DNA from: Candidatus Elulimicrobium sp.
Lineage (GTDB): Bacteria > Patescibacteriota > Minisyncoccia > Phycocordibacterales > UBA918
Length of the DNA stretch: 64,000 bases
Assembly: GCA_020720815.1 (NCBI GenBank)
Contig: DYNY01000003.1
Location: 1,002-65,001, forward strand
Direction: 5' to 3'
A model generated the notes under the pieces. It was given only the letters and a program-made list of their open reading frames with translations. It was not told the DNA's origin and ran no database searches. A program made the translations under genes and the position numbers. This document shows positions 5,956-54,245 of this stretch, piece after piece (within the stretch, counting starts at the first letter, position 1; every line of letters begins with the position of its first letter).

Positions 5956-6360
5956 ATGATATCTGACGAACAATTGAAGAAAGTTAACCCCGAATTGTAT
6001 AAAATTGCTCGAGAGGGTGGTACCGAAGCCCCACACTCCAGCGATCTGTTGTATGTTGACGATAATGGAACTTTCCACTGCGCAGTTTGCAACGCGCTGC
6101 TATTTGACTCGGAAACTAAGTTTGATTCCGGATCAGGTTGGCCCTCTTTTACAGATCCAATAAATAAAGAGGCCGTCACCCTCATCCATGATCATAGTCA
6201 TGGGATGCGAAGAACAGAAGTCCGTTGCAGTAATTGCAAGGCGCACTTAGGGCATGTCTTCCCTGATGGTCCAGAACGAACCGGTGGTGGAGAAAGAGAC
6301 TTTGGGCGTCACAATCGATATTGTATCAATGGCATTTCGCTTGAAATGCATAATAAATAA
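5956..6360 (+). CDS. msrB: Peptide methionine sulfoxide reductase MsrB (SelR)
   Basis: CAVCNALLFDSETKFDSGSGWPSF…CSNCKAHLGHVF, the Zn-binding CxxC pairs and the catalytic region. The start is taken at MISDEQ, while the track ORF begins 10 codons upstream. Confidence 0.85.
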   Translation: MISDEQLKKVNPELYKIAREGGTEAPHSSDLLYVDDNGTFHCAVCNALLFDSETKFDSGSGWPSFTDPINKEAVTLIHDHSHGMRRTEVRCSNCKAHLGHVFPDGPERTGGGERDFGRHNRYCINGISLEMHNK

Positions 6361-6363
6361 TTT

Positions 6364-6861
6364 ATGTCACAAAATTACAAAAAGGCTGTGGTGGCAGGGG
6401 GTTGTTTTTGGGGACTTGAAGACTTACTTCGAACACAGCCTGGCATTGTCGAGACTGAGACAGGTTATGCTGGCGGAAAAAATGCTAATCCGACATACGA
6501 ATCTCACCCAGGTCATGCTGAAGCCGTGGAAATTACTTACGACCCTTCAGTTACCGCCTACAAAAATATTCTTGACTTCTTTTTTCAAATCCATAACCCA
6601 ACAACTCTAAATCAGCAAGGAAATGATAAGGGTACTTCATACCGTTCTACAATCTTTTTCGCCACTAAGGAAGAAAAAGATACGGCGGAAGAGATGATAG
6701 GTATTGTAAATGAGTCTGGTCGATGGAATGAGCCTGTTGTCACAACACTTGAGCCGCTGACACGTTTTTGGCCAGCTGTAGATTATCACCAAGATTATCT
6801 ACAGAAGAGTCCTGGTGGTTATACGTGCCATGCCATATATTTTGATAGCTATCTGCAGTAG
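6364..6861 (+). CDS. msrA: Peptide methionine sulfoxide reductase MsrA
   Basis: AGGCFWGLE…GYAGG…NPTYE…HAEAV, the canonical MsrA active-site region. Confidence 0.9.
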   Translation: MSQNYKKAVVAGGCFWGLEDLLRTQPGIVETETGYAGGKNANPTYESHPGHAEAVEITYDPSVTAYKNILDFFFQIHNPTTLNQQGNDKGTSYRSTIFFATKEEKDTAEEMIGIVNESGRWNEPVVTTLEPLTRFWPAVDYHQDYLQKSPGGYTCHAIYFDSYLQ

Positions 6862-7803: not shown

Positions 7804-8105
7804 TGTGCTACGGGCAGTGAAAGTGTGCTAGAAAATTGTGTCAGCCATCATTTCCATATAAGTCACTTTTTAATTTTACCTAGTGGAACCAGAAGTCCTT
7901 ATTTAGATTTCTTTCTTGCAGGGTAGAGACAGTGGGGCGGCTATCGGGAATATCTTTCATTACATGAACGGTACACCTTTCGTATCGTACTTCGCTAGCG
8001 CTCGTGCGATACACTCAAGGTCTTCGATTCCCGAGCGGAAGCAAAGCAGTTTGCTTCCTTAGCCGCCCAAAACACAAAAGACCCTAAAGGGGTCCTTGTG
8101 TTTTG

Positions 8106-8178
8106 GGCGGCTATCGGGAATCGAACCCGAATCGAAGGCTCCACAAACCTCAGTGTTAACCGTTACACCATAGCCGCC
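8106..8178 (-). tRNA. tRNA-His (anticodon GTG) with an encoded G-1
   Basis: Manual cloverleaf fold. Acceptor GCGGCTA/TAGCCGC, D-stem GTGT/ACAC with a GG loop, anticodon stem GAGGT/GCCTT with loop TTGTGGA giving GUG, T-arm TCGGG-TTCGATT-CCCGA, discriminator C. The extra 5' G pairs with C73, a tRNA-His hallmark. Confidence 0.75.
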
Positions 8179-11808: not shown

Positions 11809-13497
11809 ATGGACTCATGGTACTGGTTGAATGAAAATAGTCTCGGTTTTCTTGCTCGGGGTTATTTAGGGGAAGGACAGACGCCAGAGGAAAGAATTAG
11901 AGTGATTGCTGATACGGCCGAGAAATATCTTGGACGCAAAGGTTTTGCTGACAAGTTTTATAAGTACATGGGTAAGGGATGGATATCTCTAGCTTCACCA
12001 GTTTGGTCAAACTTTGGTAGTACCAAGGGCCTGCCAATTAGTTGTTTTGGTTCTTACATAGCAGACAACATGGGTAGCATTCTTTATTCTAACGCAGAAG
12101 TTGGTATGATGAGTAAGTTTGGTGGTGGCTGTTCTGGATACATGGGGGCACTGCGCGGGCGTGGGTCTAGTATTTCTGATAACGGACAATCTTCCGGCGC
12201 CGTGCATTTTATGCAACTATTTGAAACCTTGGTGGACGTGGTGAGTCAAGGTTCAGTCCGTCGCGGACACTTCTCGCCATACTTACCAGTTGAACACCCA
12301 GATATTTTAGAATTTTTAGACATTGGAACCGAAGGTAACCCAATTCAAAAGTTGACACACGCTGTGACGGTAACTGATAAATGGATGGAAGAGATGGTGG
12401 CTGGTGATAATGAAAAGCGAGCTATTTGGGCACGGGTAATTCAGCGTCGTGGTGAGATGGGTTATCCATATATTATGTTTACCGATACGGCCAACAAAAA
12501 TACCGTTGATGTATACAAAGAAAAAGGCCTCACTATTTATGCTAGTAACATGTGCAGTGAGATTATGTTACCGTCAAACGATGATTGGTCATTTGTCTGT
12601 TGTCTTTCTTCAATTAACCTTCTTCATTATGACGATTGGAAAGATACAGATTTAGTGGAGACTATGATTGCTTTTTTGGATGCTGTGATGGAGGACTTTA
12701 TTGTAAAGCTCGAAGCGATGCGTGATCATAAGGACCCAGAAAAGCGTTTAGGTTTTAGTTTTATGGAGCGAGCTTATAACTTTGCTAAGGCTAACCGAGC
12801 TTTAGGTCTTGGTGTCCTTGGTTGGCATTCACTGTTGCAGGCTAAACAACTAGCTTTTCAAAGCGAAGAAGCGGAAAAGATGAATATCGCAGTTTTCAAA
12901 AACATCAAAGAGCGAGCCACCAAGGCTAGTAAAGATTTAGCGGAAGAGTTGGGTGAACCAGCTGTACTTAATGGTTATGGTCGCCGTAACACCACATTGC
13001 TAGCAATTGCTCCGACCACTTCCTCAGCTTTTATATTGGGGCAGGTATCACAAGGAATTGAGCCAATCTGGTCCAACTGCTACGTTAAGGATGTGGCCAA
13101 GATGAAAGTGACAATCAAAAACCCAACTCTCCAGACTTTGTTGTCGGAAAAAGGAAAAGATACTAAAGTGATCTGGGATAGTATTCGCGATACTGATGGT
13201 TCGGTCCAACACCTCGATTTTTTGACTGACCAAGAGCGAGCGGTTTTTCGTACTTTTTCAGAAATTGATCAAGGAGCGGTGATTAAGCAGGCGGCCGATA
13301 GACAAGTTTATATCGACCAAGGTCAATCATTAAATATTATGGTTGAACCAGATACACCAGTCAAAGATATCAATCAGCTCTATATTCAGGCTTGGAGACA
13401 GGGTATAAAATCCCTTTACTACCAGCACTCGATGAACGCAGCTCAGCAGATGGTGCGCAAGAAGTTGGCCGCTAACGCAAAAGAGGCAGGCAAATAG
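11809..13497 (+). CDS. nrdA: Ribonucleotide reductase class I alpha subunit (NrdA), short form without an ATP-cone
   Basis: Catalytic NMCSEI and SFVCCLSSINL regions, ten-stranded barrel motifs, C-terminal tail. Confidence 0.8.
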   Translation: MDSWYWLNENSLGFLARGYLGEGQTPEERIRVIADTAEKYLGRKGFADKFYKYMGKGWISLASPVWSNFGSTKGLPISCFGSYIADNMGSILYSNAEVGMMSKFGGGCSGYMGALRGRGSSISDNGQSSGAVHFMQLFETLVDVVSQGSVRRGHFSPYLPVEHPDILEFLDIGTEGNPIQKLTHAVTVTDKWMEEMVAGDNEKRAIWARVIQRRGEMGYPYIMFTDTANKNTVDVYKEKGLTIYASNMCSEIMLPSNDDWSFVCCLSSINLLHYDDWKDTDLVETMIAFLDAVMEDFIVKLEAMRDHKDPEKRLGFSFMERAYNFAKANRALGLGVLGWHSLLQAKQLAFQSEEAEKMNIAVFKNIKERATKASKDLAEELGEPAVLNGYGRRNTTLLAIAPTTSSAFILGQVSQGIEPIWSNCYVKDVAKMKVTIKNPTLQTLLSEKGKDTKVIWDSIRDTDGSVQHLDFLTDQERAVFRTFSEIDQGAVIKQAADRQVYIDQGQSLNIMVEPDTPVKDINQLYIQAWRQGIKSLYYQHSMNAAQQMVRKKLAANAKEAGK

Positions 13498-13502
13498 AAA
13501 TA

Positions 13503-13551
13503 AAACAGCCGAACCGCTAATCTAGATGAGGAATTGCTCGGCTGTTTTTAT
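13503..13551 (+). terminator. Rho-independent terminator after nrdA
   Basis: aaacagccga…tcggctgttttta hairpin followed by a T-run. Confidence 0.6.
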
Positions 13552-13924
13552 ATACCAACCAGTACTTGCCATCTTTTTCTGGTCGGAGTACGATATTTAG
13601 TACCTTAAGCCACAGAGGCAAATGAGGGGAAATAAGTACATAATGGAGTGAGTATGGGGAATAAGAATCAGACTGGTGGTGATTTTTGCGGTGGTCTCCC
13701 ACACGCTGAAAGGTGCGCTATCCAGCAGTACAGAATGAGGTTTGGTTGCACCAGTGTAACTGGTGCAAAAACCGCTTCCTTATCTGTAAATGCGCAGAGT
13801 ATTTCGAATGCTGAGCCTGTCCAACAGGGCGATGTCAGCGTTACCGACAAGAAGACCTGAGGACTAGTCACCAACTAGTTCGATTAAGAGGCCTCCGGCA
13901 ACCCCGGCGGCTTTTCGTTTCTGG

Positions 13925-13953
13925 TTGACTTAGTTATGGTCTGGGCGTACTAT
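13925..13953 (+). promoter_or_regulatory. Putative promoter TTGACT-17-TACTAT
   Basis: Read directly from the sequence. It lies 50 nt upstream of the RBS/ATG of the small basic ORF. Confidence 0.4.
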
Positions 13954-14006
13954 TTTTTTGGTCAAGTTTTTAAAGTGTTATTTCGTCAACCAAAAGAGGA
14001 GTTTTG

Positions 14007-14216
14007 ATGCCTTGTATTACAAATGGACGAGCCGGATCAAGGGGGAAGTTGGCTCGAAAGGAGGAAAAGAAATGTGGCAAAGAAGTGGTGCGCCGCAGGG
14101 AATTCCGAAGGAAACTTGCGAAACTTTGCCTGCGTTGGCATAACGCATGGCGAGGGAAGCAGCGAATTCCGAAAGGTCTCATTGAGTCCCTCAAGAAAGA
14201 GGCAAACATCATCTGA
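14007..14216 (+). CDS. Small highly basic protein (69 aa), possibly ribosomal protein S21-like
   Basis: Strong SD (AAGAGGAG) 6 nt before the ATG, own promoter and terminator. MPCITNGRAGSRGKLARKEEKKCGKEVVRRREFRRK… resembles the S21 core (…RRFKRSxEKxGxLxExRRREFYEKP…). Confidence 0.35.
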   Translation: MPCITNGRAGSRGKLARKEEKKCGKEVVRRREFRRKLAKLCLRWHNAWRGKQRIPKGLIESLKKEANII

Positions 14217-14247
14217 TGTTTTGACAAAATGATTGGAAGTAAGATTA

Positions 14248-14275
14248 AGGTGGTCCTTCGGACCACCTTTTAAAT
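14248..14275 (+). terminator. Rho-independent terminator
   Basis: aaggtggtccttcggaccacctttt followed by aaatt. Confidence 0.65.
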
Positions 14276-14508
14276 TGTCTTGGAAAAACGCCTTTTTATA
14301 CCTTTGTAAAGTCTACTAAGTATTTTTGATGAACAAGTAATACACAGGACTGTTGAAAGCTTGGTGGTATGAAAGTGTATACAGTGTATGATAGGGGAAG
14401 TTGAGTATTGGTTAAAAAACAGCGAGCAGGGACTACGTATCGCGACTACGCAGTCCCCGCTCGCTGTTTTTTGTTTTTCTTTTAATAAATTTGTTATAGT
14501 TTAGGTTC

Positions 14509-15453
14509 ATGCGAGCCATTTTTATTTTTGCTTTTATTTTTGCCGTCGTTTTTGCTACCAGTAATTGGTACGTTAATACCGCATCTGTTTGCCCTACACC
14601 TATTACTTATAGTGTTGGTAATCTTGATCCACGTTTTCCTATTTCGGATGATGAAATAAAAGCTGTTGCAACTAAAGCAGAAGCGGTTTGGGAAACTGCG
14701 TCTTTGCGTGATTTATTTGTTTATGACGAACAGTCAGATTTTACAATTAATTTAATTTATGATGAGCGTCAACAGCGGACGGTGACGGAAGAAGAATGGC
14801 GAATAAGGTTAGATGAGATGCAAAAAGAACACCAGGCGTTAATTACTCAAATTGAAGGATTGGGTGTTCGTTACCAAAGTGACGTTGCTTCGTATGATAA
14901 TAAGCGGGAGGAATATGAAGCGAAATTAGTTGCTTACAACGCACAAGTAGAAAAATATAACAAGGCAGGAGGAGCACCACCGGACGTTTTTTCGGCTTTA
15001 CAAGAAGAAGCTGAAAATCTAAATAAAATGCAACGAGAAATGTTGGAATTAGAGAAGAAGCTAAACCAACAAGTCGATATAGTTAATAAGTTAGGAGAAG
15101 AGGGGAATGCCAAAATTGCAGTCTACAACTCTGAAGTCGTAGAGTACAACGAAGTGTTTGGTGCTCTGGAAACCTTTACTCAAGGAGATTACGAACGAGA
15201 ACGAATTAATATCTATAAATTTTCAAGTATTGATGAGTTGACTCGGGTAATAATTCATGAGTTTGGTCACGCCCTTGGTGTTGGTCATGTTGAGGGAGAA
15301 GATTCAGTCATGTATTATTTAATGACAGAGAAAAGTTCCTCGGTTTTATCAGCTGAAGACATCTCTGCTTTAACTGCTATCTGTGGAAGTACTGATACTG
15401 CACAAGCGAAACTACGTCAACTAATAAGAAAACTATTAAAAAACTTTAATTAA
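14509..15453 (+). CDS. Secreted metzincin-type zinc metalloprotease (matrixin/M10-like) with a coiled-coil region
   Basis: N-terminal signal/TM. HEFGHALGVGH…SVMYY is the HExxHxxGxxH motif plus Met-turn. Confidence 0.7.
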   Translation: MRAIFIFAFIFAVVFATSNWYVNTASVCPTPITYSVGNLDPRFPISDDEIKAVATKAEAVWETASLRDLFVYDEQSDFTINLIYDERQQRTVTEEEWRIRLDEMQKEHQALITQIEGLGVRYQSDVASYDNKREEYEAKLVAYNAQVEKYNKAGGAPPDVFSALQEEAENLNKMQREMLELEKKLNQQVDIVNKLGEEGNAKIAVYNSEVVEYNEVFGALETFTQGDYERERINIYKFSSIDELTRVIIHEFGHALGVGHVEGEDSVMYYLMTEKSSSVLSAEDISALTAICGSTDTAQAKLRQLIRKLLKNFN

Positions 15454-33736: not shown

Positions 33737-35179
33737 ATGTTAGATAAAAAAGCTCGTTATATTACTACCACCCTACCTTATGTAAACTCCGACCCGCATA
33801 TTGGCTTTGCCTTTGAAATCGTCACAGCTGATGCGCTGGCGCGCTACTGGCGGCTAATGGATTATGAAGTGTTTTTCAATACTGGCACTGATGAACATGG
33901 ACAAAAGATTGCTCAAATGGCAGATAAGGCGGGGCAAGACCGTCAAGCCTATGTTGATCACTATGCTAATGAATTTAAAAAGCTCGGTGAGTCTCTCAAT
34001 CTTTCTTTTGATAATTTCATTCGCACTACGGATGAAAATCATAAGACGGCCGCACAGGAAATCTGGCAACGCTGTGAGGCCAAAGACGATATCTACAAAA
34101 AGAAATACAGTGGTCTATATTGTGTGGGGTGTGAGTCGTTTTATAAAGAGTCTGAACTAGGTACCAATAAGTGTTGTCTGATTCACGGCAAGCCAGCGGA
34201 AGAGATTGAAGAAGAAAATTATTTTTTTAAGCTCTCGAACTACCAAGCTTACTTAGCAGAGTATTTAAATCGGCCAGGTGTAATAGAACCAGAGTGGCGT
34301 CGTCAGGAGGCGATTAATTTCGTGCAGGGTGGCTTGGAAGATTTTAGTATCTCGCGCGAGAAGGCGAGATTAGACTGGGGTATCCCAGTGCCGGGCGATG
34401 ATAATCAAGTGATGTATGTGTGGTTTGATGCCCTAACCAACTACATATCTACCTTAGGCTGGCCGAAAGAGGGTAGTAATTTTGAGAAGTTCTGGATTAA
34501 TGGGGAAGTCATCCAACTGGCGGGTAAAGACCAGGTGCGTTTTCAATCTATCATGTGGCAGGCCATGCTTAAGAGTGCTGACGTAAAAGCGACCGATAAA
34601 CTGGTCTACCATGGCTTTATAAATAGTGGTGGTCAAAAGATGAGCAAGAGTCTCGGTAATGTCATTTCACCTTATGAGCTGATTGCCAAGTATGGTACCG
34701 ACGCCACTCGCTACTTACTTCTACGGCACGTACATCCGTTTGATGACTCAGACATCACTTGGGAGCGTCTCGATGAGTGGTATACCGCCAATCTAGTAAA
34801 TGGTCTAGGAAATCTCGTAGCGCGGGTGATGAAGATGGCCGAGACTCATCTAAGTGAACCTGTTGCGCACCCTGAGGCGGTCGGTTTTGACTCAGCCTAT
34901 AACAATGCCCTCCTGGACAACTTCAACACGCTACAAGCTTGTGATTATATTTGGCAAAAAATTGGTGCTCTAGATGAACGGATAGCTTTGGAACAACCAT
35001 TTAAGGTGGTCAAAGAAGATAAAGCCAGTGCGCAAATGATGATTAAAGAAATGGTCTTAGAACTATATGCTATTGGTCATCTTTTGCATCCAATCATGCC
35101 AGAAACGAATAAAATAATTAAAGAGGCGGTTTTACAAAACAAAAAACCCGCTAATCTTTTCACCCGCCTAGAAAACTAA
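33737..35179 (+). CDS. metG: Methionyl-tRNA synthetase, minimal form
   Basis: …TTTLPYVNSDPHIGFAFE… is the HIGH-like region, and QKMSKSLGN is the KMSKS motif. Confidence 0.85.
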   Translation: MLDKKARYITTTLPYVNSDPHIGFAFEIVTADALARYWRLMDYEVFFNTGTDEHGQKIAQMADKAGQDRQAYVDHYANEFKKLGESLNLSFDNFIRTTDENHKTAAQEIWQRCEAKDDIYKKKYSGLYCVGCESFYKESELGTNKCCLIHGKPAEEIEEENYFFKLSNYQAYLAEYLNRPGVIEPEWRRQEAINFVQGGLEDFSISREKARLDWGIPVPGDDNQVMYVWFDALTNYISTLGWPKEGSNFEKFWINGEVIQLAGKDQVRFQSIMWQAMLKSADVKATDKLVYHGFINSGGQKMSKSLGNVISPYELIAKYGTDATRYLLLRHVHPFDDSDITWERLDEWYTANLVNGLGNLVARVMKMAETHLSEPVAHPEAVGFDSAYNNALLDNFNTLQACDYIWQKIGALDERIALEQPFKVVKEDKASAQMMIKEMVLELYAIGHLLHPIMPETNKIIKEAVLQNKKPANLFTRLEN

Positions 35180-35180
35180 T

Positions 35181-35447
35181 ATGCAAAGTATCGAAGAAAT
35201 CTTAAAGCGAGATAGCCGAGTTGAGCTAGATAAAGCATGGGAAGTCAGTTTTACTAGACGAGCAGTTATTGCTTTCATTACCTACCTCACGGCTACTAGC
35301 TTTTTGTTTTTAATTGATAATAATTTGCCATTTATAAATTCTTTAATACCAACAGGCGGTTATTTACTGTCCACTCTGTCTTTACCTTTTATTAAAAATT
35401 GGTGGTTAAAAAGACAAGTAAATCAAAGTTTACCCGGTGCCGAATAA
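35181..35447 (+). CDS. Hypothetical small membrane protein (88 aa)
   Basis: Two predicted TM helices. It directly follows metG. Confidence 0.35.
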   Translation: MQSIEEILKRDSRVELDKAWEVSFTRRAVIAFITYLTATSFLFLIDNNLPFINSLIPTGGYLLSTLSLPFIKNWWLKRQVNQSLPGAE

Positions 35448-35484
35448 AAGTTTTAGCTAGGTTCTACAATACAGACTGCCTTCT

Positions 35485-35510
35485 AAATAGTACGATCGAT
35501 CGTACTATTT
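35485..35510. repeat. 26-bp perfect palindrome aaatagtacgatcgatcgtactattt, copy 1
   Basis: Read directly from the sequence. It abuts the stop codon of the YerC-like gene. Confidence 0.85.
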
Positions 35511-35513
35511 AGT

Positions 35514-35927
35514 CTAGTGATTTAATTTTTCCAAGGTGCTTTTCCAACGACCACGACCTCGCGGCGGTAGTCCAGCTTGAAGAATAGTCTCTAGTATATT
35601 CAAAATACGAGCGTGCTCGGTTTTATTTTCGGTGATAAATTTTTGAATATTACCGTATTGTCCTATTTGGTAGTTTAGACGTATACGGTCGGCGGTTGAA
35701 GGACTTATTTTTAGGAGTGTCCAGACTCTATATGAGGAATGACCTTCTATGAAAAGAATGATTGCCGCCAAACGCTTTGAGAGCATCAATTTTTCTTCCT
35801 CACCCAAAAGCTCTTCTAGAAACTTTGGGCTTTGAGTTTTGTCCAAGCGAGCGATTATGTCGCTTAGTTGTTTGAAAAGCTCCGTTTGTTTTTCTTCCGT
35901 CATTAGTTGTTTTGAGAGGTGAGCCAT
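35514..35927 (-). CDS. TrpR-like YerC/YecD-family small DNA-binding protein
   Basis: …LMLSKRLAAIILFIEGHSSYRVWTLLKISPSTADRIRLNY… matches the Trp-repressor-like HTH core. The track ORF begins 2 codons upstream with TTG. Confidence 0.55.
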   Translation of the reverse strand: MAHLSKQLMTEEKQTELFKQLSDIIARLDKTQSPKFLEELLGEEEKLMLSKRLAAIILFIEGHSSYRVWTLLKISPSTADRIRLNYQIGQYGNIQKFITENKTEHARILNILETILQAGLPPRGRGRWKSTLEKLNH

Positions 35928-35931
35928 ACCC

Positions 35932-35957
35932 AAATAGTACGATCGATCGTACTATTT
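35932..35957. repeat. 26-bp perfect palindrome aaatagtacgatcgatcgtactattt, copy 2
   Basis: Identical to copy 1. It abuts the start codon of the YerC-like gene. Confidence 0.85.
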
Positions 35958-36100
35958 GGGTATTAGGAGTTGTGGATTGGGTATGTGAGATATGGAACGG
36001 CGGTGAGATTGTGTGCGAATGGATTAGGTATTTTCTGTATAGATTGCAGGAAAGGTGTAAAATTTGGACATCAGACTAGGCGGGCTGGTATAGTATCGTT

Positions 36101-36385
36101 ATGAAACACTTGATAGTTTTGCCTGGTAATAGCCTACAAAATCAGTCCTGGGGGATTCGAATGGCTTCACATTATGGAGAGTATTTTGATTCCATACATA
36201 CAGTCGAATATGATCATTGGAAGACTGGTGAAGCGGATATAAATTTAGCCCTGGAAGAGGAGCGATTGCGGGAGCATGTGGCGACCTTACCCAAAGGGAC
36301 ACAGATTATTGTTTTGGCCAAATCAGCTGGTAGTATTCTGACCTTCTTGGCGGTACAATCCGGGGCGATTAATCCTATCTACTAG
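36101..36385 (+). pseudogene. N-terminal fragment of an alpha/beta-hydrolase (YdeN/RBBP9-like serine hydrolase), apparently truncated
   Basis: 94 aa ending shortly after the nucleophile-elbow-like LAKSAGS. Full-length members run ~190 aa. Confidence 0.3.
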
Positions 36386-36429
36386 ACATGTTCAAGAAAG
36401 ATACTATTTAGCCTAAGCATGAATAGACT

Positions 36430-37281
36430 ATGAAATACATTGATACTCATTCCCATTTGAACCTGTCAGCTTTTGCTGACGATTTAGCTGAAGTAGTAAA
36501 TCGCTGTGTAGATAAAGGAATGGCGGTCATTAACGTTGGTACCAAAGAAAGTACAAGCGTTCGAGCTGTTAAGTTGGCGCTTTTACATCAGAGTCTGTAT
36601 GCCATCATTGGGCTACACCCGACCCAAACAGTCCCCAGTCGGCCAGATATGGTCGATGATGGAAAGGGTGGTACACCGCTACCTGAAGCGGGGGAGATTT
36701 TCAATCAGGCTTTTTATCGTCAGTTGGCGGGTAGTAGCGACGGCAAGGTGGTCGGGATTGGTGAATGTGGTTTTGATTATTATCATACAAAGCAGGGTAG
36801 CTATGCCGTACAAGAGGCGGCTTTTATTGCGCAAATTGAGTTAGCCAACGAACTCAATTTACCACTGATGATTCATACCCGTGGCCCGAGGCCAGGAGAG
36901 GAAAGTCCAACTGGACGAAGTGTTTATACTGACGTTTATGAGGTGCTCAAGCAATACGCTAAAGTACCTTTTAATGTTCACTTTTACGCTGGCTCTCTAG
37001 CGGAAGCTCGGCGATTTTTCGAGTTAGGTGGAACAATCTCTTTTACCGGCGTGATAACCTTTGCGAAAGCCTATGAAGAAATCGTTAAAGCTGTCCCACT
37101 AGAATTAATTCACGCTGAAACGGATTGTCCTTACGTGGCGCCTGTGCCGTATCGTGGACAGCGCTGCGAGCCTTGGATGGTAGAGGAAGTGTATAAAAAA
37201 ATCGCCAGTATTCGTGGAGAAGATGAGGAAAGTGTTCGATTAGCTTTACTTGAAAACTCTAGAAGGTTTTATAAGATCTAA
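36430..37281 (+). CDS. tatD: TatD-family metal-dependent hydrolase/DNase
   Basis: MKYIDTHSHLNL…, …GECGFDYYH…, and a conserved TatD His/Glu/Asp pattern. Confidence 0.85.
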   Translation: MKYIDTHSHLNLSAFADDLAEVVNRCVDKGMAVINVGTKESTSVRAVKLALLHQSLYAIIGLHPTQTVPSRPDMVDDGKGGTPLPEAGEIFNQAFYRQLAGSSDGKVVGIGECGFDYYHTKQGSYAVQEAAFIAQIELANELNLPLMIHTRGPRPGEESPTGRSVYTDVYEVLKQYAKVPFNVHFYAGSLAEARRFFELGGTISFTGVITFAKAYEEIVKAVPLELIHAETDCPYVAPVPYRGQRCEPWMVEEVYKKIASIRGEDEESVRLALLENSRRFYKI

Positions 37282-44319: not shown

Positions 44320-44627
44320 TAAATGAATAGACGAGCGTAGCGACTACTATGAATTTAAGTATAAATAAGGAGTACGAAGTACGACTATATTTTACTTATG
44401 CAGGCGCTTAGTTGAGCCGCGACCCCAAAAGGAGCGGTCAACTGTAGCGCGTTTCTAGGCCCAGCAAATTGCTTGCCCAAGGCAAATCGCTGGAACCACG
44501 ACTCTAAGTGTCATTAACGCTCTGTTAAAAATGAATAATACGCCCACAGTTATACCAAACCCGCACATTAAAAGCAAAGCGTGTATAGTCAGATTTGTAA
44601 AAATTCAATGTTATTATATAAACACAT

Positions 44628-49753: not shown

Positions 49754-50488
49754 ATGGATAAAGATAACCCGTTTGCAGTTAAAAGACTTTCCGCCAATAA
49801 TGAGTACTATAGTAATGTTTTCAAAAAGACAGAAAGAACTGTCTCGGTAGTCTTTTACATATTGTCTTACATTGAACGAAACGAACAGACAGAATTCCAT
49901 ATAAAAGTCATGAGTGAAAAAGCCATGCAAGTGCATGAAGCCTCACTGGCTTCTTTGTCCTTATATGAATATGAGGCGCGCGAAAAAATATTTCCTTTCC
50001 AGCAAGCCTTAGTCGCACTTGAGGGTGCTTTTCGGATCGGCAACGCCGCCCGGGTCCTTAATGATGAGGTGCTTGTTTTACTCCTTACGGAAGTAGATTT
50101 GGTTCAGCGTTATCTCCGCAATCACTTCGCCATTCAGCTCCCACAGTCTGTGCGCGAGTACAATTCCCTCATTGCCTCCCCGAGTGAGCCATCTCGTCCC
50201 AATCGTCTTTATCGTGAGAATATTGCACCGAGAGCTTCGCGGGTAAACATTCCGAAAGGGGACATTAGCTCTGATGCCCATATGGTCTATAGTCAACTAG
50301 TAGATCGCTCCGCCCGCATAAAGACAGTCCTTGAAGCTAAACCTGAAGCGACGATAAAAGACATTGCGGAAGTAATAACTGATGTTAGTGAAAAGACAAT
50401 TCAGCGCGAGCTAAATAGTCTCATAGAAAAAGGACAAGTGATAAGACAAGGAGAAAGGCGTTGGTCTAAATACTCAATTGCGAAGTAG
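49754..50488 (+). CDS. Hypothetical transcriptional regulator with a C-terminal winged HTH (DeoR-like)
   Basis: …ATIKDIAEVITDVSEKTIQRELNSLIEKGQVIRQGERRWSKY. N-terminal domain unrecognised. Confidence 0.4.
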   Translation: MDKDNPFAVKRLSANNEYYSNVFKKTERTVSVVFYILSYIERNEQTEFHIKVMSEKAMQVHEASLASLSLYEYEAREKIFPFQQALVALEGAFRIGNAARVLNDEVLVLLLTEVDLVQRYLRNHFAIQLPQSVREYNSLIASPSEPSRPNRLYRENIAPRASRVNIPKGDISSDAHMVYSQLVDRSARIKTVLEAKPEATIKDIAEVITDVSEKTIQRELNSLIEKGQVIRQGERRWSKYSIAK

Positions 50489-51425
50489 TGAATATTTGTC
50501 TCTTATTTATAAAGAACATTGAACAACTGGAGAACTGGGACAGAGTATAGGGTTCATAGACATGAAACAGGGATGATTCCTCGGTTGGAGCGAAATTCAA
50601 GAGATACGAAACGCAGGAGATTTCTCGGTTGTAGCGAAGCGGAAAACGAGGAATTTCCTGAGTGAGTGTCTCTCTTGCACACCCTCTTTTTCCGTGTCGT
50701 GATGCAATTATGGTCGTAAGAAGTGACTACCTAGTGCGTCATAAGAGAAAGGAAGATAGTGTTGTTTTTATTGACGTTTGTTCTACTTTCACGTAATGTG
50801 GCAGCAGAAATCTGTCCATATCACCTAGGCTATATGGTTGTTTGGCCCCTTGTGTTACTTAGCTTAGTGCTTAGTTAGTTTCGTATCACATCCTGGACTA
50901 AGCAATCCACATCTAGCTTGGATAAATGCGGTTGGAGTTTGTCAGTCTTCTGCTATACTTCCGAGTGATGCGCTTATGCGCTTTTTTCTAAAGTCGGTCT
51001 GTGTTTTCCTCTGGGAGAGGAAAACCACCCGAAGCTTTACGACAGGAGAAAGCCGTAAGAGTCGTTATGTTCTTTAACAAACATGTTGCTTTGCAACATG
51101 GGTAGCCGGGAAACCAAACTACTTTCATATCTATAACCACCACCCTGTGCGCAACCTAATATTATATTCATATAATATATAATTATGAAGCACGGACTAC
51201 CGCCTCACTTTTTCCTGCCTTGGTTGCCTATGACAGACACGCAGTCCTTCCTTACAGCTAATCTTTACGTCGCGAGATGTAGAGTTAGTGATATTTCGTA
51301 AGGTGGCGTGATAAACCACTTTATGAATATGAATTAATTCATATTATCAGCCGTTATCAAACTAATTAGCTCGCGCAAGTGAGCACACGCATTAATCCTG
51401 CGTAAAAAAACAAATTACTTAATAT

Positions 51426-53444
51426 ATGACTATTGCAAAAGATTTTGCAGCAAAGGCTTCTGTAGCTTTCGTTGCAGCCGCAATGATCTTCTCAATGATT
51501 GCTCCTGCTGCGCAGGCACAGTCAACAGAGGACTTGCAAACGATGATTAACACACTACTTGCTCAAATTGCGTCTCTACAGGCACAAGTTGGACAGGGAG
51601 GTACATCAGTAGCTTCAGGTGTTTGCCCATACACATGGACACGTGACCTTTCAACCGGTTCAACCGGAGCTGACGTTATGAAACTACAACAGTTCCTAAA
51701 CGCTGACGCTGATACACGAGTAGCAGCTGAAGGTGCAGGTTCAGTAGGTATGGAGACTGAGACTTTTGGTCCAGCTACTGCCGCTGCTGTTTCTAAGTTC
51801 CAGGTTAAGTACCGAGCAGAGACCCTATCACCAGCCGGATTAGTAAATCCAACTGGCTACTTTGGTCCAGCTTCACGTGCTAAGGCTAACTCACTTTGTT
51901 CAGCTCCGGTGGTAACACCAGTAGATGAGACAGATGAGGATATGACTGACGATGAAGATACAGAATCATCTGATCTTTCAGGTGAGGCTTCACTTGATTC
52001 ATTTGAAATAAATGACGGAGATTCAACTATTGAGGAAGGAGATTCAGATGTTGTTATCGGTGAAATCACAGTTGAATTCACAGATGGTGACGCTTCAATT
52101 TCACGACTTGATGTGACTCTAGACGGTCTTGCTTCAGGAGCAAAGCCATGGGACGCCTTTGACACTCTATCACTTTGGGTAGATGGCGAAATGGTGGCTG
52201 AAGTAAATGCTTCTGATAAGGATGACTACACCACTGAAAGTACAGGTATGATTCGTTTCTCAGGTCTAGACATTGTTGCTATGGAGGATGAGGCACTAGA
52301 CATTACTGTTGGTGCTTCAATTCAAAACAATCTTGATACTGAAGAACTTACATCTTGGGATCTTAAGGCTGTAGCAATGCGTTACTTTGACGCAGATGGT
52401 GTAGCAACAACTGAAGATGCAACTCCAGTTACAGATGATACTGCAACATTCGAAATTCAAACAGCTGGAACTGACGAAGAATTGAAATTATCTCTCGCTT
52501 CATCAAATCCAGATTCAACTGACATTGTTGTAGACACAGATGTTGACACTAATGATGTAACCATCATGGTGGCAGATCTAGAAGCTGTTGACAATGACAT
52601 TGAAATGACTACAGTTGTTGTAAAGGTAACTACAGTTGCTACAACTACAACTAACGTTGTTGATGATGTTCGAGTTGTTATTGATGGACAAGAGTTTGAT
52701 GCGGAACCACTAGGATTGCTTTCAGCTGGAAAGTCACAAGCAAGTACTACTGGTAATTTCGTACAATACCTCTTCGATATCGATGGTGATGTAATTATCG
52801 ATGAAGATGATACTGTCGAAATGGAAGTGGTGGTTGATCTTAACGATACCAATGATGGTCTACGTTATGTTAACGGCACAACTATCAAGGCTGAAGTTAC
52901 TTCAACAGAACGAAATCTATGGGTAGCTGAAGGTGCTGATGATCTTGGTACTTCACAGTTCAATGGAACGGCAGTTGGTGATGCTCATACACTAGTAGCT
53001 GAGGGTATCATCGTACCAGTAGACGGCTTCGAATCAGAAGTTGATACTCTAGGTACAAATGACACTATCGGTGAATTCACACTTACATTTGATGTAACAG
53101 CTGTAGAAGGAGACTTCTATGTTACTGAATTTGCAAGTACAAGTGCTACAACTAATGGTGTTCAATTCACAGTTGATGGAACTCTAGGAACAGGAACTAT
53201 TTCTGCTTCAATGACTTCAACTGGTGATGAGGATACTTCGGGAGTATTCACAGTACGTGAAGGTGAGACTGAGACATTCACTTTGACTGTTACAGTTGAC
53301 CCACAAGCTACTGGTACTTTCCGAGTTGAACTTAACGAAGTATGGTACTCTGCAGAAGTAGATGGAACAACTACTTCAGAGATGTATATACCAACCCCAG
53401 TTTCTGACTTCCGAACTGCTTCACAAGCTATCCAAGGTGCTTAA
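51426..53444 (+). CDS. Secreted protein with a peptidoglycan-binding (PG_binding_1-like) domain and a long, extremely acidic D/T/V-rich C-terminal region
   Basis: Signal peptide and a coiled-coil. …TRDLSTGSTGADVMKLQQFLNADADTRVAAEGAGSVGMETETFGPATAAAVSKFQ… Then ~480 aa at roughly 25% Asp+Glu. Confidence 0.5.
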   Translation: MTIAKDFAAKASVAFVAAAMIFSMIAPAAQAQSTEDLQTMINTLLAQIASLQAQVGQGGTSVASGVCPYTWTRDLSTGSTGADVMKLQQFLNADADTRVAAEGAGSVGMETETFGPATAAAVSKFQVKYRAETLSPAGLVNPTGYFGPASRAKANSLCSAPVVTPVDETDEDMTDDEDTESSDLSGEASLDSFEINDGDSTIEEGDSDVVIGEITVEFTDGDASISRLDVTLDGLASGAKPWDAFDTLSLWVDGEMVAEVNASDKDDYTTESTGMIRFSGLDIVAMEDEALDITVGASIQNNLDTEELTSWDLKAVAMRYFDADGVATTEDATPVTDDTATFEIQTAGTDEELKLSLASSNPDSTDIVVDTDVDTNDVTIMVADLEAVDNDIEMTTVVVKVTTVATTTTNVVDDVRVVIDGQEFDAEPLGLLSAGKSQASTTGNFVQYLFDIDGDVIIDEDDTVEMEVVVDLNDTNDGLRYVNGTTIKAEVTSTERNLWVAEGADDLGTSQFNGTAVGDAHTLVAEGIIVPVDGFESEVDTLGTNDTIGEFTLTFDVTAVEGDFYVTEFASTSATTNGVQFTVDGTLGTGTISASMTSTGDEDTSGVFTVREGETETFTLTVTVDPQATGTFRVELNEVWYSAEVDGTTTSEMYIPTPVSDFRTASQAIQGA

Positions 53445-53522: not shown

Positions 53523-53600
53523 GTCCAAATTTTACCTATAGCTACCCGAAGATAGGTGGCAGGCACCTCCGGAAGGCAAAATCTGTTGTATAATATTTCC

Positions 53601-54245
53601 ATGGCCCGTGCTCCTCGCATTGATATAGCAGATTATCAATATCACGTTCTAAACCGAGCTAATGCCCGTACGCAGATTTTTAATACTACTGAAGATTATC
53701 GACTGTTTATGGAGATACTCACAGATACGGTAGAATTTTTGGACATGCGTCTGCTGGCTTTTTGTTTAATGCCAAATCATTGGCATTTGATTTTGGAACC
53801 AAGAGTTGATGGAGATTTGTCTCGCTTCATGGCTCGCCTTACCAACACTCATGTTAAGCAGTATCAAGCGAAGCATGAGTCAGTGGGGATGGGACATCTC
53901 TATCAGGGTAGGTATAAATCTTTTACGATTGAAGAAGGTCAATACTTCTATACTGTCTTGCGTTATGTTGAACATAACGCTTTAAAGGCAAAACTATGTC
54001 CGCGGGCTGAGGATTGGCCGTGGGGAAGTGCCTACCTGCGAGCAAGGGGCACTACTAAATTACTCTCACCTTTGCCGATAGATTTGTCGGCAAATTATCT
54101 AATAGATTTAAATGCACCACTTTTTGCGTCTGAAGAAGAGGCAGTAGAATTGAGTGAAAACTGCAGCGTTCCATACGCTAGTGCTGTTTGGCAGGATAAT
54201 TTGAATGTTATTGTAGAACAAAAGACGACGGGTAAAATATTGTAA
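53601..54245 (+). CDS. REP-associated tyrosine transposase (RAYT), an IS200/IS605-like Y1 HUH transposase of the COG1943 family
   Basis: HUH motif …MPNHWHLIL. …LYQGRYKSFTIEEGQYFYTVLRYVEHNALKAKLCPRAEDWPWGSA aligns with E. coli RAYT (…IWQRRYWEH…YIHFNPVKHGWV…DWPWSS). The start is taken at MARAPRID. Confidence 0.8.
   Translation: MARAPRIDIADYQYHVLNRANARTQIFNTTEDYRLFMEILTDTVEFLDMRLLAFCLMPNHWHLILEPRVDGDLSRFMARLTNTHVKQYQAKHESVGMGHLYQGRYKSFTIEEGQYFYTVLRYVEHNALKAKLCPRAEDWPWGSAYLRARGTTKLLSPLPIDLSANYLIDLNAPLFASEEEAVELSENCSVPYASAVWQDNLNVIVEQKTTGKIL

Follow-up and report, generated by a model that had tools for sequence, protein, structure and literature searches.

What is the function of a 937-nt stretch (positions 50489–51425) that holds no gene and lies between a gene for a winged helix-turn-helix (wHTH) protein and a gene for an acidic secreted protein in the 64,000-nt window of Candidatus Elulimicrobium sp. 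DNA analyzed here? An initial annotation, made from the letters of the window, had called it a candidate large structured RNA or regulatory region. Each part of that description holds, with covarying RNA at 50966–51425 and promoter- or operator-like DNA at 50669–50960, and we lean towards the view that this stretch serves the gene for a conserved, cell-wall-anchored acidic surface protein of Paceibacteria, as its control region and as a long, structured 5' leader. Few uncultured bacteria are as widespread as the Paceibacteria (Parcubacteria), and our literature search found no RNA-based regulation, structured RNA or surface-protein leader described for them.

Conservation and gene order

The stretch from 50669 to 51425 is real and under selection: about 85 loci of uncultured Paceibacteria, which belong to the Candidate Phyla Radiation (CPR), carry an equivalent at the same place, and these come from 26 GTDB species genomes and 60 metagenome contigs. 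A GTDB scan with the wHTH protein as query and one genome per species yielded 28 loci. Searches with the ORF-free stretch (ORF, open reading frame) using blastn and nhmmer found matches in 27 of these, directly 3' of the wHTH gene and on the same strand; one of the 27 (L019) is a weak match only, with an E value of 2e-5. The ORF maps of the GTDB loci show nearly everywhere the same arrangement, with recA, a small ORF and ftsK on the − strand, followed on the + strand by the wHTH gene, 700–1400 nt without an ORF, and an ORF of 620–700 aa.

A metagenome scan with the invariant 18-mer ATATGAATTAATTCATAT fetched 120 loci, and a profile built from the first alignment detected the wider element in 60 of them. 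Of these 60, all that were long enough had the wHTH gene upstream and the acidic-protein gene downstream, and the gene order ftsK(−), wHTH(+), element(+), acidic protein(+) was found in every locus with flanks. The remaining 18-mer loci, all but one, contained none of these cassette genes and probably match by chance, the 18-mer being AT-rich. One locus, L051 (4281–4972), departs from this: it has the cassette genes and the palindrome described below, and scored under the profile threshold.

In the window itself, recA, a 128-aa ORF and ftsK (all −) are followed by the wHTH gene (244 aa; 49754–50488, +), the gap, the acidic-protein gene (672 aa; 51426–53444, +) and an IS200-like Y1 transposase gene (all +). 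The gap is indeed free of ORFs of 60 aa or more, as first reported; none overlaps 50489–51425, and the longest in any frame is 51 aa. Its conservation profile is uneven: 50489–50668 is poorly conserved, and 50669–51408 consists of conserved islands alternating with gappy segments, with peaks at 50969–50988 (86% identity to the window) and 51289–51348 (75–94%). Conservation of the noncoding part exceeds that of the neighboring proteins.

The initial annotation had named absent conservation and random-like folding energy as signs against a functional element. What we found was strong conservation across the GTDB and metagenome loci, and a + strand folding energy of −276.5 kcal/mol for the 937 nt, compared with −237.6 ± 6.8 kcal/mol in 20 shuffles (z −5.7); the − strand, also compared with 20 shuffles, gave a z of −5.3. 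The scan against Rfam 15 that it had proposed agreed with its own failure to recognize consensus elements of known RNAs. At gathering thresholds, the whole window and 12 homologous loci returned tRNAs only; at E values up to 10, the ORF-free region gave two chance-level hits far under threshold and no family match. ARAGORN found no tmRNA or tRNA in the ORF-free region. The putative RNA family is new, with no match in Rfam 15.

Covariation in the 3' domain

A comparative alignment for covariation, also suggested in the initial annotation, was made for window positions 51225–51410. We used a structure-blind MAFFT alignment of 49 distinct sequences (A1), on which a hand-defined structure was scored. 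Standard pairs occupied 90.2% of cells, compared with 31–46% when the partners were slid by 1–3 columns and 80.1% after shuffling. Cells with changes on both sides of a pair numbered 267, compared with 49–113 in the slid controls and 87.5 ± 10.3 in the shuffled ones. Compensatory changes were present in 29 of the 47 pairs, and none of 500 shuffles reached any of the five measures. Since G.U cells outnumbered A.C cells (218 to 69) and the loops of hairpin d are of GNRA or UUCG type, the + strand is the RNA strand.

The domain opens with hairpin a (51257–51289, +), of 13 pairs with a bulged C, which shows double changes in 10 of its 13 pairs and has 91.8% of its cells paired; its loop varies in length, with inserts of up to ~90 nt in some species. 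Hairpin b (51297–51325, +) has 9–11 pairs and a conserved loop, yUGAUAA (51309–51314). Double changes occur in 8 of 9 of its pairs, and it forms in all 44 distinct variants folded singly. Further downstream are hairpin d (GCUCGC-GCAA-GUGAGC; 51369–51384, +), with a GNRA tetraloop and double changes in 6 of 6 pairs, and hairpin e (ACGCA-UUAAUCC-UGCGU; 51387–51403, +), with a conserved loop UAAyyn and double changes in 5 of 5 pairs. Of the 49 sequences, 21 have a GNRA loop in hairpin d and 2 a UUCG loop. When sequences were folded singly, nearly all of 46 variants formed two 3' hairpins at the d and e positions, with many different stem sequences. The compensatory changes, seen across ~50 species-level sequences, support a predicted RNA-like hairpin array on the + strand in the right-hand ~460 nt (50966–51425).

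The palindrome and a candidate pseudoknot

Between hairpins b and d lies the AT-rich palindrome that had been noticed in the initial annotation. It was confirmed as a perfect 10+10 palindrome without a spacer, AATATGAATTAATTCATATT, at 51326–51345, and may act as a DNA operator or form an RNA hairpin c. It occurs once in the window, is invariant over 20–22 nt, and is identical in all 49 sequences of A1 save for one base in one of them; because it is nearly invariant, it carries no covariation information. The centre of the palindrome lies 80–104 nt before the ATG in 66 of 76 sites. In L011 this distance is 215 nt instead of the usual ~87 nt, which implies an insertion of ~130 nt. When its 22-mer was compared with viral contigs, no match was found. 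We also considered a resemblance to the ARG, Fur and Cheo boxes and rejected it, as the spacing does not fit their consensus sequences.

The palindrome zone also contains a mini-ORF (51322–51336), which reads AUG-AAU-AUG-AAU-UAA in the window and is present at minimum as AUG-AAU-UAA in every sequence. AUG-AAU-UAA is the only invariant ORF of the region, and the mini-ORF may serve as a start-stop element or may simply follow from the palindromic sequence.

On the 3' side of the palindrome, the motif UUAUCA (51354–51359, +) is complementary to UGAUAA in the loop of hairpin b (51309–51314) and is its candidate pseudoknot partner. The first five of the six pairs form in 42 of 42 sequences that have both motifs, and seven sequences with a short hairpin b loop of 4–6 nt are also without UUAUCA. 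The pairing shows no compensatory change, and the pseudoknot is for this reason a candidate only. At the DNA level, TGATA and TATCA flank the palindrome in inverted orientation.

The 5' half of the proposed leader

The 5' half begins with hairpin H1 (GCGC-UUAU-GCGC followed by U6; 50970–50987, +), the most conserved block of this half (86% identity). It starts a constant 8–10 nt after the −10 box of the promoter P3 described below, has 4–5 pairs with an energy of about −5 to −6 kcal/mol followed by U5–7, and occurs as a compensatory variant, GUGUC/GGCAC, in ~8 sequences. As the stem in the window has only 4 G-C pairs, it was not listed by a terminator scan that needs 5 pairs or more. The initial annotation had described this sequence, GATGCGCTTATGCGCTTTTTTCT (50967–50989), as terminator-like. 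The sequence is real; its place 8–10 nt after a conserved −10 box makes it more likely the 5' end of the leader, and we read H1, which directly follows the box, as a 5'-terminal hairpin. H1 could also serve as a weak terminator for upstream transcription.

Next to it lies an extended hairpin, H2 (50990–51038, +), defined by single-sequence folds and covariation. Its inner stem is the perfect 10-bp hairpin GTTTTCCTCT-GGG-AGAGGAAAAC, which the initial annotation had rightly recognized and placed too far to the right; its position is 51003–51025, ~8 nt to the left. In alignment A7, 71% of the cells of the inner helix were paired, compared with 36–45% in slid controls, and 37 cells showed double changes, compared with 8–22. 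The covariation score of 0.351 (0.06–0.13 in the slid controls) was reached by none of 500 shuffles.

H2 is followed by a single-stranded conserved motif (51066–51083, +) with the consensus (T)ATGAAyGTTCTTTGAyA, present in the window as TATGTTCTTTAACA, and by a variable middle domain (51082–51197, +) that was delineated by eye. It comprises H3 (51082–51100, +), H4 (~51101–51125, +), which has GNRA loops and is followed by a conserved UUUCAUAUC, and H5 (~51124–51189, +), a long AU-rich hairpin. Judged by eye, the stems of this domain differ between species yet stay paired. In 12 other species a module of ~100 nt with its own covarying hairpin is inserted here. RNAalifold predicted 0 pairs on a MAFFT alignment of 50945–51232, which reflects the unalignable variable hairpins; because length variation defeats MAFFT, pairing in the middle domain was judged by eye and not quantified. 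A conserved motif, yUaCCGCCnnACyUUuUCCyGcc (51199–51222, +), stands between the middle domain and hairpin a.

Promoter and operator candidates upstream of the leader

For the part upstream of H1, RNAalifold predicted 0 pairs on an alignment of 47 sequences covering 50675–50965 (A2), in which only short invariant blocks are conserved. This result probably reflects a real lack of pairing, and from its sequence pattern 50669–50960 appears to behave as promoter or operator DNA. The short unpaired blocks lie at 50675–50755 (+) and include TTGC (50675), TGT..TAnT (~50694–50703), GTAAGA (50716–50721), CGTCAT (50737–50742) and CAGA. The spacer between GTAAGA and CGTCAT is a constant 15 nt throughout A2, and the blocks are candidate factor sites or a candidate alternative-sigma promoter. 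GTAAGA-N15-CGTCAT appears to resemble the AAC-N16-CGT of extracytoplasmic function (ECF)-sigma promoters. ECF-sigma promoters typically drive envelope genes.

Two promoter candidates of the ordinary kind follow. P2 (TTGACG, 17 nt, TAATGT; 50773–50801, +) is of sigma-70 type and restricted to the nearer clade: TTGACG and TAnnnT are kept in ~20 sequences and absent from the distant clade. P3, with the extended −10 sequence TGCTATACT (TGnTAnnnT; 50951–50959, +), was examined in an alignment of 55 listed sequences, in which TA...T is present in 55 of 55 and TG in 47 of 55. Positions 3–5 of the hexamer are variable (variants include TATACT, TATAAT, TACTAT, TATTAT, TACACT and TATAGT), a pattern of information that is that of an extended −10 box. 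Motifs of the P3 type also occur shortly before the ATG of other genes in the window, and P3 thus looks like the normal promoter type of this genome. Transcription from P3 would start near 50966, 7 nt after the −10 box. Between P2 and P3 is a block, AATCCACA (50897–50904, +), with a near-invariant ATCCACA that resembles a single DnaA box; it is present as TTATCCACA in a Zambryskibacteria locus (L029).

Many of the 42 genes in the window have a TGnTAnnnT box 6–12 nt before the ATG, which suggests that leaderless mRNAs or mRNAs with very short leaders may be the norm in this genome. In the divergent version of the element in L051, inspected by eye, the −10 box, the 5' hairpin with its U-run and the palindrome are kept, and hairpins d and e are apparently absent.

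Connection to the downstream gene

Hairpin e is separated from the ATG of the acidic-protein gene by an A/U-rich unstructured spacer of 22 nt (51404–51425, +), and the start region is unpaired in the folds. No hairpin with a U-run was found between hairpin e and the ATG in 46 variants, where the spacer is ~21 nt. A −10 box (TAnnnT) was not found at a usable distance from the ATG at 51426, which excludes an adjacent promoter or a leaderless start, and no TGnTAnnnT was seen by eye inside the 3' domain. As there is no −10 box near the ATG, transcription of the acidic-protein gene would have to pass through the structured region. Rather than being free-standing, the RNA is probably joined to the next gene as its leader. 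There is also no Shine-Dalgarno sequence before the ATG at 51426, which is normal here because only 5 of the 42 window genes have a purine-rich Shine-Dalgarno sequence.

The two flanking proteins

The wHTH protein has a helical N-terminal part and a C-terminal winged helix-turn-helix. Its matches, all of them weak, are to TrmB, DeoR, Lrs14 and Csa3-type HTH domains (residues 175–243), that is, to DNA-binding HTH families only, and a profile search of PDB sequences gave no match. The AlphaFold 2 (AF2) model has a predicted local distance difference test (pLDDT) score of 55 and is confident solely in the C-terminal wHTH. We found 1520 homologues, the named ones belonging to Paceibacteria/Parcubacteria (Kaiserbacteria, Nomurabacteria and others), and the exact protein of the window is also encoded on a Joint Genome Institute (JGI) contig from sample 3300000234. 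The recognition helix SEKTIQRELN is invariant in the wHTH alignment A5. The palindrome is invariant as well, which suggests that the protein and the palindrome may belong together.

The acidic protein has a signal peptide, a weak PG_binding_1 match, an acidic linker and tandem immunoglobulin (Ig)-like beta-sandwich domains. Its AF2 model, with a mean pLDDT of 82.6, shows the peptidoglycan (PG)-binding domain, an acidic linker that is disordered, and several beta-sandwich domains in a row, for which Foldseek returned Ig-like domains of surface adhesins (PrgB, antigen I/II) and integrin legs. None of its 855 homologues is characterized. In the literature we found no proteomic or imaging data tied to this family and nothing specific on surface proteins of Paceibacteria. 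The acidic protein is a wall-anchored surface protein, and a candidate for the major surface protein or an S-layer-like one.

In L029 (Zambryskibacteria, 6184–6796) the wHTH gene, the TTATCCACA box and the downstream PG-binding gene are kept, and the palindrome is absent. The PG-binding protein gene of this locus lies 610 nt 3' of the wHTH gene.

A proposed structured leader for the surface-protein gene

The explanation that we hold with moderate confidence, a control region joined to a long structured leader, would work as follows. After a variable spacer (50489–50668) behind the wHTH gene, the segment 50669–50960 would exert control at the DNA level through its invariant blocks, the clade-specific P2 and the universally conserved P3. 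Transcription starting from P3 near 50966 would give a leader of ~460 nt, co-transcribed with the acidic-protein gene. This leader would present, in order, the G-C hairpin with its U-run, H2, the variable middle domain and the highly conserved 3' domain, the last made up of hairpin a, hairpin b with its UGAUAA loop, the invariant palindrome, UUAUCA, and hairpins d and e, and it would reach the ATG at 51426 with no intervening terminator. Together, the hairpin at its 5' end and the compact folding may protect a putatively very abundant mRNA and may offer a start region that is A/U-rich and unstructured, in an organism with little use of Shine-Dalgarno sequences. A trans-acting factor would read the invariant palindrome and the neighboring single-stranded motifs and so set the level of expression; the adjacent wHTH protein is the most likely candidate for this factor and may act on DNA or on the RNA hairpin. 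The role of the leader would probably be stability and regulated expression; the surface-layer (S-layer) genes discussed below offer a precedent. Structured mRNA leaders with their promoters are a known kind of element. New here are the size, the sequence invariance across a whole CPR class and the fixed cassette with a wHTH gene.

Several observations weigh against this explanation. H1 with its U5–7 resembles a weak intrinsic terminator right after the proposed start, which is odd for a promoter. The transcription start and the co-transcription are both inferred, as are the status of the acidic protein as a major surface protein and its abundance. The middle domain is unalignable, with no RNAalifold consensus. 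The wHTH protein is tied to the palindrome by adjacency only, and L029 has an identical recognition helix without the palindrome. Finally, stretches of 20 nt and more are invariant across genera in which the flanking proteins are ~50% identical, which exceeds what mRNA stabilization needs. A specific function is therefore missing from the leader account, and a function beyond stabilization is likely.

Alternative explanations

The RNA might instead be a free-standing large noncoding RNA (ncRNA) of ~450–700 nt, maybe forming a ribonucleoprotein with the adjacent wHTH protein and lying upstream of the surface gene by chance. Its size, many covarying hairpins, GNRA loops, possible pseudoknot and invariant single-stranded motifs would all suit such an RNA, as would a sequence conservation higher than in the flanking proteins, the presence of the wHTH gene beside the element wherever upstream sequence is available, and the lack of an Rfam family match. 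We nevertheless consider it rather unlikely, given that a terminator is absent between hairpin e and the ATG in 46 variants, that the 22-nt spacer lacks a usable promoter so that the downstream gene needs read-through, that the distance to the ATG is fixed, and that the element is never seen away from the acidic-protein gene. A stable RNA processed out of the leader is possible. Along the same lines, and with a fairly low probability, the ~450–700 nt could represent a new Paceibacteria-specific class of large structured RNA that is processed from, or acts within, the leader and partners the wHTH protein. Such an RNA would have a tertiary fold with the pseudoknot, and dimerization or protein binding mediated by the palindrome; its complex with the wHTH protein might sense a signal or organize synthesis of the main envelope protein without Shine-Dalgarno initiation. 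A riboswitch-like sensor is a different matter: here a small molecule or ion would be recognized by the 3' core, with hairpins a and b, the pseudoknot and the invariant nucleotides of the junctions, and its binding would adjust surface-protein expression. Aptamers typically look much like this core, with invariant junction and loop nucleotides, covarying stems and a loop paired to a downstream segment, and the loop motif and its partner were lost together in 7 sequences; moreover, c-di-GMP and c-di-AMP riboswitch classes control envelope and adhesin genes. What makes a sensor improbable is the lack of an expression platform, as we found no terminator or anti-terminator near the 3' domain and no pairing that occludes the start region. 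There was no Rfam riboswitch match at E values up to 10, a perfect 20-nt palindrome in the core is unusual for aptamers, and the 7 sequences that swap the hairpin b loop for one of 4–6 nt keep the rest of the structure.

The region might also work purely at the DNA level, through several promoters and operators on which the wHTH protein or other factors would act, with hairpins devoid of any RNA function. This would fit the upstream third, with its short invariant blocks, fixed spacers and lack of pairing, and a perfect 20–22-bp palindrome adjoining a wHTH gene, framed by inverted TGATA and TATCA, is a classic operator layout. Operators, however, conserve sequence, whereas here both sides of the stems change with pairing kept (267 cells). 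The ~3:1 excess of G.U over A.C and the GNRA or UUCG loops are RNA signatures of the + strand, and large loop inserts are tolerated while the stems are kept, so that we regard a DNA-only region as quite unlikely. Least probable of all, and very much so, is a decayed gene, a mobile-element remnant, a replication origin or a dif site. The IS200-like Y1 transposase gene 2 kb downstream, the repeat module inserted in the leader of some species, the DnaA-box-like ATCCACA and the neighboring ftsK could each be taken as a hint in this direction. A pseudogene or small ORF is disfavored, as the region is ORF-free in all mapped GTDB loci and indels between the blocks are not multiples of three. An origin or dif site is disfavored too, since the GC skew does not switch at 50 kb, being positive all the way from 8 to 64 kb, and DnaA-box-like sites are neither enriched nor clustered (20 in the window compared with 17.3 expected, none inside the region). 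Viral contigs yielded no match to the palindrome, and the repeat modules at 50577 and 50621 are confined to this site.

Comparison with known systems

Genes for the S-layer protein slpA combine strong tandem promoters with a stem-loop in the 5' untranslated region (UTR) that stabilizes the mRNA, giving high expression (PMC10221546). Leaders of S-layer and outer-membrane protein genes, such as Lactobacillus slpA and Escherichia coli ompA, are the closest analogues known. With them the locus described here would share one or more strong promoters, a long untranslated leader opening with a stem-loop, and a gene for a secreted, cell-wall-anchored, acidic surface protein (PMC10221546). Here the −10 box stands 8–10 nt before the G-C hairpin, and the fit to a 5'-terminal stem-loop assumes a start 7 nt after the box. 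The slpA/ompA leaders are ~100–200 nt long, with one or two hairpins and a sequence that is not conserved across genera, whereas the present leader, at 450–700 nt, is three to five times as long and contains eight or more hairpins, together with a palindrome of 20 invariant nt and possibly a pseudoknot. Unlike leaders of the slpA/ompA type, it has no exposed Shine-Dalgarno sequence, and a stabilizing effect is suggested by analogy only.

OLE, ROOL and GOLLD RNAs have partner genes as constant neighbors. Together with raiA they resemble the present element in size class, in a covarying multi-hairpin layout, in GNRA loops and conserved unpaired nucleotides and in fixed neighbors. The element differs from them in having no Rfam 15 match, no terminator of its own and a fixed distance to the start codon. 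As in the CIRCE/HrcA system, an inverted repeat conserved far beyond its surroundings lies between the proposed promoter and the start codon, an HTH regulator is plausible, and action may be on DNA or on an RNA hairpin. The palindrome AATATGAATTAATTCATATT nevertheless differs from CIRCE in sequence and lacks a spacer. HrcA and the wHTH protein are not related, and in one lineage the protein occurs and the palindrome does not. The c-di-GMP and c-di-AMP/ydaO riboswitches likewise have a conserved core, covarying stems and a loop paired to a downstream segment, upstream of an envelope gene, but the element matches none of these families, shows no recognizable expression platform and is part of a much longer leader.

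The locus is a conserved three-part cassette of a regulator, a long structured RNA and a surface protein. If the proposed reading is true, it marks the gene most likely to encode the main surface protein of these ultra-small cells and shows a route to surface-gene expression in a genome that hardly uses Shine-Dalgarno sequences. It would also add a large RNA family usable for modelling and for CPR genome annotation, and the palindrome and the wHTH protein would form a directly testable pair of protein and nucleic acid.

Spacer repeats and other features of the window

The lineage-specific spacer (50489–50668, +) has an identity of 0.05–0.34 and many gaps in the conservation profile. The direct repeats and complementary arms that the initial annotation had placed here both exist, as two 37-nt modules with 76% identity (50558–50594 and 50602–50638) and as arms at 50576–50586 and 50644–50654. 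They are not part of the conserved element, the repeat zone being common only to close relatives (L002, L012 and L014). The repeat-module motif has 2 occurrences in the window, both here, compared with 0.04 expected, and among 149 loci it was found only in L002 and L012, at the same site. A dispersed repeat of the repetitive extragenic palindromic (REP) or miniature inverted-repeat transposable element (MITE) type was rejected for the 50577/50621 module, which is local only.

Another module is dispersed. It consists of AATGAGTAGACGAGCGTAGCGACTACTACGAATTTAGTTCC, a covarying hairpin and GGAACA, and is absent from the leader in the window. A partial copy lies at 44322–44360 (+) of the window, and L012 has a full copy elsewhere (695–800). 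As an optional leader insert of ~100 nt it is present in 12 species (L010, L011, L013, L018, L024, L038, L084, L088, L104, L115, L133 and L137). This module may be a MITE- or REP-like element.

Two other ORF-poor gaps of ~1 kb in the window, at 13497–14509 and 35179–36430, had no Rfam match. Directly 3' of the acidic-protein gene and ~2 kb downstream of the ORF-free stretch, an ORF at 53556–54245 (+) matches IS200-like Y1 transposases. ORFs of ~220–229 aa stand at the same position in L012, L014, L015 and L026, similar by size (the Pfam scan covered the window ORF only). Homology among them, if real, would make the shared position a sign of a domesticated gene, like the REP-associated tyrosine transposases (RAYT), rather than of an active insertion sequence (IS). 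Up to ~8 kb the GC skew of the window is close to zero or negative, beyond that point it is positive as far as 64 kb, and a boundary of the origin or terminus is possible near tRNA-His (8105–8177).

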